From Dictyostelium discoideum (lineage: Eukaryota): a DNA stretch of 64,000 nucleotides. A program made the translations under genes and the position numbers. Below the pieces are notes generated by a model that saw only the letters and a program-made list of their open reading frames with translations, did not search any database and was not told where the DNA came from. Below, in pieces: positions 19,961 through 23,914 of this stretch. The first letter of the stretch is position 1. The number at the start of each line of letters is the position of its first letter. The stretch spans positions 3,456,001-3,520,000 of the forward strand of contig CM000155.2 in NCBI GenBank assembly GCA_000004695.1, given 5' to 3'.

Positions 19961-22900
19961 TTAATAAATTATATTTAAAATATCAATTGATAAATTATCA
20001 TTTATAGTTTTTTTATATTTTAATTGAATATAAGAAGTTTTTGAAGAATTATTTAATTGATTTAATCTATTTTTTAATTGTTTAATTAATTGAATATAAT
20101 TTGTTGGTTTCTTTTTTAAAATTCTTTTAAATGCATAAAGTGTTAACCAATTAATTTCAAATAAAATTATAAAATTGAATTGTTGTTGTTGTTGTTGAGT
20201 TTCATTATTATTATTTTTATTATTATTATTTACTTTTAAAATTTGATTAAATAAAAAATTTGAAATTCTAGAGATAACTTGTGATAAAATTAAATTTGCA
20301 TTAAAATTAAGGTTCCAATAGAATTCATTAACCCAACAATGAAATTTAATTGCACAAAATAATATTACCTGATAAATGTTTAGGAAAATTGTTGGTAAAG
20401 AATTAATCGTTAAATCTAAAAGAATTGGTTGTGCTTTATCTGATAGCTTTGAAATTAGAAATTTGAATAATTTATTTCTCCATTCAATTTGTTCATTGGT
20501 TTCTACATCATTATCATTAAAATTAAAAAATGTAAAATTATCATTATTAACTTTTTTAGATAATCTTGAATAATCTTTTTGAACTTCAAATGTTTTACAA
20601 TTAATTAAATAACCACACCATGCTATAAATAATTGATCATTATCATCACCATCACCTCTTTTAATTAAACCACTATTTTCATCATCTGAATAATAATATT
20701 TAGTCTTGGATTGATTTGCTTTTACACCATACTCTGTTATACCATTATGAAATAAATTTTTAAATGATTTTAAATTATCAATTTCTGTTGAAACATATAA
20801 ATAATCATCAATAAATCTAACTAAAAAATTAAATTCTAAATTATTATTATTATTATTATTATTATTATTATTATTATTATTATTATTATTATTATTATTA
20901 TTATTATTATTATTATTATTATTATTATTATTATTATTATTATTATTATTATTATTATTATTATTATTATTATTATTATTATTATTATTATTTTTATTAT
21001 TATTATTTTTATTATTATTATTATTATTATTTTTATTATTATTTAATAAAGGTAATAAAATTTCATTTTCTAAATCACCTAATAATAAACTACATAAATG
21101 TGGCGAACATAAAGAACCTTGACCAATACCAACAACTTGATGAAATAATTTTGAACTATAACGAATATAATGATTAAAAATATGAGAATGAAATAAATGT
21201 AATAATTGATTTTTTTCAATTATTTGTTGATATTTTGAATCATAAATGATAGTTTCTGATTGATTATTTTTATGAATTCTAATTGATTCATCTAAAGTTG
21301 GTATATTATTTAAAGATGAAACAAAAAATGTAGTATTTATAAATGGTGAATATTCAGACTTTTTTTTCATTTTAAAATTTACAATATTTTGAACTAAATA
21401 CTTTTCATTTAAAAATACTTTTTCATTTAAAATTTGAAATAACTTTTTTTGATCAATATTATCATAACATTTTGAAATATCAATTGACATGAAATATAAT
21501 TTCTTTTTTAAACCTTGAGATGATGATGATGATGGTGATGATGATGATGTTGAATTATTATTATTATTTAAAAAAATTTCATATTCTTCTCTAATTGATT
21601 TAAATTTTAAATAAATATCACTCTTTGTAAAAATTGAAGAACCAATTAAATTATTATTATTATAATTATTATTATTATTATTATTATTATTATTATTTGT
21701 TAAAAGTTCAAATTTTAAAATTGGAAATGCAAAAGTAGCTAAAGAATCATTAATTGATTCAGGGAAATCTACCATTGAAATTGTTGAATTATTTTCATTA
21801 AAAATTGGTAATGTTGAATTATTATTTTTTGAATTTACAATTGGTCTAAGATTAGAAGTTTTTGGAATGAATCTTAATGAAGATATACCAAATTTTCTAT
21901 TTTCTATTGTTTGTTTATTTACGAAATAAATCTCTGAATAAATTTTAAATGATAAATTTTGTGATTGAATTCCAGCCAATTTGAACCAATCAACTTTTCT
22001 AAAATATAATAATTTTAAAGAATCTGTTGATTCTGTACAATAGAAATAGTTTCTAATTATTGATGGAATGATCTCTTCAAATAACCACCACATAAATCTT
22101 TTAAAATAAATTATTGAACAATTAGTACCAAACAGAAATTGATTCAAATTAAATCTTTTACAAAATGAATTAAATTTTAATTTTTTATTTGATGTTTGAT
22201 TTAAGAAAATAATTAAACCTTGATTAAAACATTTTTGATTATATTCACTACCCCAAACTTTATTCTTGCAAAATAATCTATTAGTAATTGTTATCAAAAA
22301 TCTATAAACTAAATCAATTGGACAATTATTATTAATTAATGATTTTAAATCAATTTGTGTTGATTCTATATTTATAGATTTTGTTGAATTATTATTATTA
22401 TTATTGCTACTACTACCAAAATGATAATTTGTATATAAGGAATCTAATATATGTTGATATGATTTTGTATTGTTTAATTTTTGAAATATATTGGAGAATA
22501 TTGGTAATGTTGGTTTAAATGAACTTTGAATTCTAATTTGATTTGGTTTCTTTGGTAATATGTCAATTAAAGATTTTTGATTATGTTTGCTTTGTTTAGA
22601 TATACATGATGAGAGTGGTTGTGAAAGTAAATACCATAGTAATTTCTTTGTATAATTTAAACTGATTTTACCATTAATTATTAACTGCTTATTATTTAAT
22701 AATTTTGAAATTTTATTTGGTAAAAATGTGGATGATGGCGTCATTGAATATAGTATATGATTATGAACAATTTGATTATCTCTTTCATTCTCTTCATCAT
22801 CCTTTATAAAATTATTTATTCTATAACTTGGTTTCGCTATTGCTTTATAATTTGTTTTATTTAAATTTGTTTGTTTTTCTCGTTGTTCTTCATTCCTCTT

Positions 22901-23914
22901 TTTAATTTGATTCTCTTTATTTAATTGTTGTTGTTCTTTCTTTTTATTTCTCTTTCTAATCCAACTTGGTAATCTAGTTTTTGATTCTATCTTTTCATAA
23001 TCATTTTCTTTTTTATTTAATATTTTTTGTTTTTGTTGGTTTTGTTGTTGTTGTTGTTGTTGTTGTTGTTGTTGTTGTTGATGTTGCTGTTGTTGTTGTT
23101 GTTGTTGTTGTTGTATTTGTAAATATCTATTTTTTTTAGCAAAAAAAGAAACAGGTAAACCAGATATTTGTATGTATATGTTTCTATTGGAGGTTGATCT
23201 AGTAAATAAATAATGATTTTTAAAGATATCCTCTAAAATTTCAAAATGTCTTTCTGAAATTCTTTTAAATGATGGACTTGTTAATATATAACCAATTGGT
23301 GTATTTTGATAAGTTTCACCTGTATACTATAGTATAATTATTTTTATTAATATTTAAATAATAAATAAATAAATAAATAAATAAATAAATAAATAAATAA
23401 ATAAATAAATAAATAAACTATAATAGTAAATCCAAAGATATCTAAATAGAATAAAAACATTACTTACACCTATTAAAGAAATAACATTTTTTGACTCTAT
23501 TTGTTTAACTAATGATAATAATTTATAAAATGAATTATTTGGTATTTTTTGTTGTTCAATCTTTCTTTTCAGTGTTGTCTGTTGTTTATTATTATTATCA
23601 TTATTATTTTGATTATTATTTTGATTATTATTTTGATTATTATTATTATTATTTTGATTATTTTGATTATTTTGTGCAGTATTTGTATCTATTTCAGCTT
23701 TTAAACAAACAAAACTATTTAAAAGGAAATCTCTGTAGTCGATGGGATCAGTGGTCTCGTTAAATACTTGTTTGATCGAGTCATCCAAGTTATGATTAGT
23801 TTGATCAATCTTTAAAACAATATATCTTAGTATCGTAACTACATCATATCCTTTTTCATTTAAAAATATTCTATTTAATAAATTTGGTTCTTTATAAATG
23901 TTTTGAATATTCAT
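19961..23914 (-). CDS. tert: Telomerase reverse transcriptase (TERT)
   Basis: Minus strand, 2 exons: 23914..23468 and 23326..19961 (intron GTAAGT...TAG containing an (AAAT)n repeat). Motifs found: T motif WLFEEIIPSIIRNYFYCTE; motif 1/2 SLRFIPKTSNLRPIV; motif A KLYFMSIDISKCYDNI; motif B' GIGQGSLCSPHLCSLLLGDLE; motif C FLVRFIDDYLYVS; motif E AWCGYLINCKTFEV. N-terminal TEN-like region has a poly-Q run (23040-23130). There is a poly-Asn insertion of about 80 aa between motifs B' and C (20845-21040). Confidence 0.93.
20845..21040 (-). repeat. (AAT)n microsatellite (ATT on + strand), about 65 units, encoding poly-Asn insertion inside TERT RT core
   Basis: Perfect and near-perfect ATT repeats on the plus strand, in frame as AAT/AAC/AAA on the minus strand between motif B' and motif C of TERT. 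Confidence 0.95.
23363..23417. repeat. (AAAT)n tetranucleotide repeat, 14 units, inside the TERT intron
   Basis: aaataaataaat... read directly. Lies between TERT donor (23467) and acceptor (23327). Confidence 0.9.

Follow-up and report, generated by a model that had tools for sequence, protein, structure and literature searches.

The gene for telomerase reverse transcriptase (TERT) in Dictyostelium discoideum, tert, carries a long in-frame (AAT)n microsatellite within the part that encodes its catalytic core. The gene occupies positions 19961-23914 of the minus strand in the window, by which we mean the whole 64,000-nucleotide stretch analysed here (assembly GCA_000004695.1, contig CM000155.2, positions 3,456,001 to 3,520,000 of the forward strand), and all coordinates below are those of the window. 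The repeat, at 20840-21043 on the minus strand, encodes a 68-residue asparagine tract (residues 911-978) between the helix of reverse transcriptase (RT) motif B' and the strand of motif C. Its best explanation, in which we have good confidence, is a slippage-expanded, translated and tolerated B'-C loop that leaves the RT ring and the catalytic triad unaffected. The tract is real as a repeat but ordinary for the D. discoideum genome, and neither the gene and its protein sequence nor this class of repeat is new.

Tandem Repeats Finder describes the repeat at 20840-21043 with a period of 3, 68 copies and 97% matches. The frame is open over the 204 nt and continuous with that of the gene, and the translation reads NNNK-N7-K-N4-K-N51, that is, 65 Asn and 3 Lys. 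Fifty-one AAT units follow one another without a break, and the only interruptions, three AAA triplets, all lie at the 5' end; this purity agrees with recent slippage. An earlier interpretation made from the letters of this DNA (hereafter the sequence-only reading) had placed an (AAT)65 tract at 20845-21040 and described an insertion of about 80 residues; the position was right, the extent fell a few bases short at each end, and the residue count was too high. That the repeat lies in frame between motifs B' and C is borne out by the translation and by alignment with human TERT. In the phmmer alignment, residue 907 stands opposite human residue 855 (where the B' helix ends, in 'GDMENKLFA') and residue 983 opposite human residue 862 ('LLLRLVDDFLLV', the start of the motif C strand), so that the B'-C connection comprises 75 residues in D. 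discoideum TERT versus 6 (residues 856-861) in the human enzyme. Alignment of the translated coding sequence had been proposed as a check on the B'-C spacing, and in the phmmer alignment with human TERT the two motifs flank the repeat.

The remainder of the protein has the features expected of the catalytic subunit of telomerase, as the sequence-only reading had recognised. Pfam matches, all of which exceed their curated cut-offs, identify the telomerase RNA-binding domain (TRBD; Telomerase_RBD, PF12009, residues 489-600 at 21974-22309, 9e-17, 61.9 bits against a cut-off of 25), the RT domain (RVT_1, 9e-10) and the C-terminal extension (CTE) or thumb (TERT_C, PF21399, residues 1104-1234 at 20072-20464, 4.4e-14, 53.3 bits against a cut-off of 27). 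A phmmer search of PDB sequences matches human TERT (7qxa) at 2.5e-36 in three collinear stretches, and the human thumb domain (5ugw) matches the C-terminal extension at 1.1e-5. Motifs T (residues 562-596), 1 (633-647), A (759-773), B' (882-903), C (983-995), D and E all occur in order on the minus strand, as had been claimed for all of these but D, and the alignment with human TERT shows RT motifs 1, 2, A, B', C, D and E in the expected succession, together with the Asp triad of the catalytic site. Motif T, at 21986-22090, lies upstream of the RT domain; its 'YFYCTES' stands opposite human 'FFYVTET', and the longer pattern 'YFYCTES..LLYFRK..W' aligns to human motif T. Motif A, LYFMSIDISKCYDNI (21455-21499), contains the catalytic Asp765 and aligns to human 'LYFVKVDVTGAYDTI', and motif B', GIGQGSLCSPHLCSLLLGDLEN (21065-21130), aligns to its human counterpart. 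Motif C, FLVRFIDDYLYVS (20789-20827), provides Asp989 and Asp990 and aligns to human 'LLLRLVDDFLLVT', while motif E, FIAWCGYLIN (20600-20629), aligns to human 'LFPWCGLLLD'. All of these features are on the minus strand.

Conservation was assessed in an alignment of 61 sequences (A1), comprising the long, 927-residue tert open reading frame (ORF) and 60 TERT cluster representatives. The three catalytic aspartates are invariant (D422, D646 and D647 in ORF numbering, corresponding to Asp765, Asp989 and Asp990). The QG, Ser and Cys residues of motif B' fall in invariant columns, G539, G543, S547 and C551 (ORF numbering) being unchanged throughout, and W709 and G711 of motif E are nearly invariant. 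Between the end of motif A (residue 773) and the start of motif B' (residue 882) lie about 108 residues, spanning human residues 703-855, which correspond to the insertion in fingers domain (IFD). An AlphaFold2 model of the 927-residue ORF, built on the same alignment, has a mean predicted local distance difference test score (pLDDT) of 80.9 and a predicted template modelling score (pTM) of 0.83, with the IFD region modelled at high confidence. The predicted overall fold is the TERT ring. Foldseek comparison of this model with the PDB gives human telomerase as the best match (7trd_A, E 7.9e-33, TM 0.66), followed by the Tetrahymena, yeast, Candida and Tribolium TERTs, and the top 18 matches are all TERT. 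Human TERT (7qxa, 7trd, 7bg9) shares the domain order (TRBD, RT with IFD, CTE), the motifs and the catalytic triad, but its sequence identity with the D. discoideum protein is only about 18-19%, and it fails to rescue a Dictyostelium tert knockout (PMC6592521).

In the AlphaFold2 model a helix of about 30 residues begins just after the QG of motif B' (ORF residues 547-576) and reaches about nine residues into the asparagine tract. ORF residues 577-638 are modelled as coil, with pLDDT below 50 for residues 586-628, and are followed by the motif C hairpin (ORF residues 639-644 and 647-652, pLDDT about 96). The tract is therefore predicted to lie in a surface-exposed, non-structured part of TERT. 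The coil, of low confidence itself but bounded by a B' helix and a C hairpin that are both modelled confidently, agrees with the earlier suggestion that so large an insert must be looped out of the folded enzyme. The sequence-only reading had stressed that the two motifs pack together at the active site, but the points at which the tract is anchored lie elsewhere. They appear to be the QG-distal end of the B' helix and, in the motif C strand, the end remote from the DD turn. Simple geometry would put these anchors some 20 Å or more from the catalytic carboxylates, at the edge of the palm rather than at the active site.

The length of the B'-C connection varies widely across the family. An exhaustive HMMER search with the long tert ORF as query covered 1.84 billion cluster representatives and gave 1409 matches at E 1e-3 or better. 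We defined the spacing as the distance that separates the Gln of 'G-x-x-Q-G' from the first Asp in whichever '[RKH]-h-h-D-[DE]-h' comes next (where h stands for a hydrophobic residue), and surveyed the best 150 of the 1409 matches with the corresponding regular expression. Both motifs were located in 133, and sequence P0001 was left out because it has no match to the expression. Among these 133 representatives the spacing ranges from 35, the human value, to 186, with a median of 51. It is at least 70 in 39 of them and at least 104, the D. discoideum value, in 17. The separation is thus not uniformly short, and the premise of the sequence-only reading, that some 15-25 residues are normal, is not supported. 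Named land-plant TERTs with long loops include those of Typha latifolia (105), Dioscorea, Phalaenopsis, Tasmannia, Ginkgo, Ceratopteris, Sphagnum and Calypogeia, and beyond the land plants long loops are found in the streptophyte alga Spirogloea and the heteroloboseans Acrasis kona (186) and Willaertia magna (174). In the land-plant and heterolobosean proteins the large insertion falls at exactly the site of the D. discoideum tract (spacing 105 to 186), with the proviso that some are automatic gene models and could retain an intron. Their inserts are of complex, mixed composition rather than homopolymeric, and are of independent origin.

Land plants possess active telomerase, so an insert of the D. 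discoideum size at the B'-C site would be compatible with activity. Judged from these sequences, the B'-C connection appears to be a loop at the periphery of the palm, with a length that can vary freely from one TERT to another. We found nothing specific in the literature that describes B'-C insertions in TERTs. Recognition of this connection as one of the family's length-variable sites should be of modest use in aligning, modelling and engineering these enzymes, for example as a site for a tag.

Among dictyostelids the spacing is 40 in Polysphondylium violaceum, 41 in Acytostelium subglobosum, 39 in Tieghemostelium lacteum, 41 in Heterostelium album and 38 in Synstelium polycarpum, and one further dictyostelid-like TERT, from EukProt, has an N-rich loop with a spacing of 61. 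Because these loops are short (38-41, apart from the N-rich 61), the expansion of the tract appears to be specific to the lineage leading to D. discoideum, relative to the other dictyostelid genera sampled. Those genera provide the closest relatives found, at 32-41% identity to D. discoideum TERT. A homologue search with low-complexity regions stripped returned the Chenopodium quinoa TERT as its sole match, and a search with the tert B' and C flanks only gave 16 candidates and no match. The Heterostelium album homologue (P0006, EFA79432.1/XP_020431553.1) is a protein of 1496 residues annotated as 'beta-N-acetylhexosaminidase'. Its N-terminal part is glycosidase-like and its TERT part starts at about residue 890; two neighbouring genes have probably been fused in this gene model.

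Asparagine runs as long as this one are commonplace in D. discoideum, and the exceptional status that the sequence-only reading gave to the insertion is not supported. Two other long ORFs in the window contain uninterrupted runs of 54 Asn (6085-6246, plus strand) and 52 Asn (56830-56985, plus strand), so that three separate ORFs within 64 kb, TERT included, have runs of more than 50 residues. Altogether 32 runs of N or Q of at least 10 residues lie inside long open frames in the window. The D. discoideum proteome is reported to contain nearly 10,000 homopolymer tracts, chiefly of Asn and Gln, which are thought to lie on protein surfaces (PMC9234386) and have been ascribed to slippage of trinucleotides (PMC9234386; PMC13093961). 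Set beside the coding homopolymer tracts of Eichinger et al. (2005), as reviewed in PMC9234386, the TERT tract has the same in-frame AAT read as poly-Asn and is likewise hydrophilic and presumed to lie at the protein surface. We found no difference between them, and the 51 pure units match the longest runs elsewhere in the window (54 and 52). The repeat has the properties of a coding trinucleotide microsatellite, being a near-pure triplet repeat, in frame and not conserved in orthologues. Poly-Asn tracts are a signature oddity of the D. discoideum proteome, and a tert gene that bears one, with a sequence that is already a database entry inclusive of the tract, adds little as a discovery. A comparable case is the TERT of Plasmodium falciparum, for which several asparagine stretches and large insertions have been reported (PMC5855555). 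Here too the genome is AT-rich and all TERT motifs are kept, but the protein is much larger (about 280 kDa).

The locus is D. discoideum tert (DDB_G0293918, UniProt Q54B44), since all 11 tert primers listed by Nassir et al. 2019 (S3-S5 Tables) have exact, single matches in the window with the expected geometry. The published overexpression primers match at the tert ATG (forward, 23890-23914) and at the last tert codons (reverse, 19964-19989), the quantitative reverse-transcription PCR pair (23565-23585 and 23242-23262) lies on either side of the intron, and the knockout-arm and confirmation primers are placed at and past both ends of the gene. Nassir, Hyde and Baskar (PLoS Genet 2019, PMC6592521) characterised this gene and knocked it out, and the sequence-only reading had not recognised it as that published locus. 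Their 3.8-kb genomic amplicon corresponds to 19964-23914, and at the level tested there is no difference between their tert and ours. The gene is functional, as this 3.8-kb genomic copy rescues the knockout (PMC6592521). The asparagine tract is not mentioned in the main text of that paper, in which the word 'asparagine' does not occur. Neither of the two splice variants nor the long ORF had an exact match in a collection of 15 billion proteins, and a 29-nt sequence flanking the tract had 0 exact matches in JGI metagenome contigs. D. discoideum TERT and any relatives of more than 41% identity are missing from that collection and its 50% representatives, despite the accession Q54B44.

The complete gene that had been proposed at 19961-23914 is confirmed, with its ATG at 23914 and its TAA at 19963-19961 on the minus strand, but it consists of two exons, separated by an in-frame intron (23467..23327) that had gone unmentioned. 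The frame from the ATG is interrupted only once, by a stretch with in-frame stops and an (ATTT)16 microsatellite. Exon 1 (23468-23914, minus strand) encodes residues 1-149, the N-terminal TEN-like region, including a Q/N-rich stretch at 23586-23684. Exon 2 (19961-23326, minus strand) encodes residues 150-1270 and the stop, and covers the TEN/TRBD linker, the TRBD, the RT domain and the C-terminal extension. The intron (23327-23467, minus strand) is 141 nt long, in frame, with the boundaries GTAAGT..TATAG, and gives a spliced coding sequence of 3813 nt and 1270 residues. Tandem Repeats Finder detects the period-4 repeat within it at 23355-23417. An alternative pair of boundaries, 23469..23320, would remove 150 nt, also in frame, to give 1267 residues, the difference being 'YTG'. 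We prefer 23467..23327 for its consensus donor, and the choice alters three residues distant from the asparagine tract. The intron is mostly (ATTT)16 microsatellite, and sequence alone does not decide between the 141-nt and 150-nt junctions.

Taken together, these results are best accommodated if slippage during replication lengthened an (AAT)n microsatellite within the tert coding sequence, the same kind of expansion having presumably taken place at thousands of other sites in the AT-rich D. discoideum genome. The tract lies in a peripheral, apparently length-tolerant loop of the palm that joins the B' helix, at its C-terminal end, to the N-terminal end of the motif C strand. It is most likely transcribed and translated, and would protrude as a flexible hydrophilic loop, with the ring of TRBD, fingers, palm and thumb and the Asp765/Asp989/Asp990 triad remaining intact. 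Because the ring and triad appear to stay intact, the tract can be regarded as a tolerated, probably near-neutral passenger, neither a functional module nor a disruption of the active site. Several points weigh against this interpretation. The template for the published rescue construct was genomic DNA, so that the construct gives no cDNA support for the tract, and no telomerase activity has been detected in D. discoideum with TRAP (telomeric repeat amplification protocol) (PMC6592521). Low pLDDT is not proof of disorder. Some of the long loops in homologues could stem from introns that automatic gene models failed to recognise, the survey of spacings depends on a motif regular expression applied to the best 150 matches only, and the comparison of the tract covers other dictyostelid genera and a single D. 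discoideum sequence.

A selected function for the tract, as a prion-like, condensate-forming or interaction module serving TERT localisation, assembly or a non-canonical developmental role, is in our judgement unlikely. Among D. discoideum proteins, those with regulatory or RNA-binding roles are reported to be enriched in poly-N and poly-Q tracts, with a preference for the N or Q frame (PMC9234386), and D. discoideum TERT does have a non-canonical developmental role and a knockout that human TERT leaves without rescue (PMC6592521). However, the tract is missing from all other dictyostelid TERTs retrieved, it is a pure and presumably unstable repeat, and equally long tracts occur in unrelated neighbouring ORFs in the window. 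Nor does the frame preference call for a special function, because the alternative frames of the tract on the minus strand give poly-Ile or stops. We consider it very improbable that the poly-Asn loop is a regulatory element, for example a self-associating prion-like segment adjoining the palm that gates activity or drives nuclear-body assembly. If it were, it might contribute to both the undetectable TRAP activity and the non-canonical developmental role.

It is also distinctly unlikely that D. discoideum TERT has lost its catalytic activity through the insertion together with other changes and that the protein has been kept for non-enzymatic roles only. Such a loss of activity would fit the negative TRAP result, the presence at chromosome ends of sequence derived from ribosomal DNA rather than canonical repeats, and the developmental phenotypes (PMC6592521), but TRAP may fail for technical reasons, as is discussed by the authors of that study, who describe telomerase function in D. 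discoideum as unresolved (PMC6592521). Asp765, Asp989, Asp990 and the QG, Ser and Cys residues of motif B' are all intact in invariant columns, and every TERT motif has been kept across 1270 codons despite a G+C content of 20.6% in the window. Loops as long or longer are found at the same site in plant TERTs, and in the AlphaFold2 model the B' helix and the motif C strand are each joined to the tract at their far end.

Removal of the tract from tert mRNA as a cryptic intron, which would leave a normal short B'-C loop, is extremely improbable: D. discoideum introns are short and AT-rich and in-frame GT..AG pairs do span the tract (a donor at 21078 and an acceptor at 20836, for example, 243 nt), but when all GT upstream and all AG downstream of the tract were enumerated, every in-frame pair was found to delete at least 12 conserved residues, 'GDLENEILLPLL', at the end of motif B', because the last upstream GT (21078) sits within the Gly codon of the conserved 'GDLEN'. 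The sequence-only reading had held that no GT..AG boundaries would preserve motif C, which was imprecise, since in-frame pairs exist; all of them cost at least the end of motif B'. In addition, no candidate donor resembles the GTAAGT of the real tert intron, the tract is in frame with no stop over its whole length, and coding (AAT)n tracts are the norm in the D. discoideum genome (window counts; PMC9234386). The candidate was accordingly judged unlikely and set aside.

Towards the N-terminus, the first 343 residues align to the N-terminus of Polysphondylium violaceum TERT (BLASTP 3e-9), and 'YIQISGLPV' (23150-23176) resembles the GQ motif. For the telomerase essential N-terminal (TEN) domain, no Pfam match was obtained in the tert protein and no PDB sequence match with the N-terminal 188 residues after removal of low complexity. 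A poly-Gln run (23027-23119, minus strand; residues 219-249; Tandem Repeats Finder period 3, 29 copies) directly follows the GQ-like motif, ahead of the TRBD, which places it in the TEN/TRBD linker, where it had been read previously. Smaller inserts comprise N11-Y-N4 at 21650-21697 between motifs 2 and A, and a Ser/Asn run at 21519-21553 immediately ahead of motif A, both on the minus strand and both occupying alignment columns that are empty in most other TERTs. The Q/N-rich stretch of exon 1 noted above is a further low-complexity segment of the minus-strand gene, within the TEN-like region.

No tRNA genes were found in the 64-kb window. The convergent neighbour of tert is an ORF of 399 residues (18668-19867, plus strand), whose stop lies 93 nt from that of tert; its product is hydrophobic, resembles a multi-pass membrane protein and is without a Pfam match. 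Other plus-strand neighbours have Pfam matches to the protein kinase domain (8356-10011), leucine-rich repeats (25874-28183) and the TraB/PrgY/GumN family (28508-29653). Upstream of tert, the stretches at 23920-24121 and 24258-24361 are nearly pure A/T, with long T/A homopolymers and (AAAAAT)n arrays that are typical of D. discoideum intergenic DNA.

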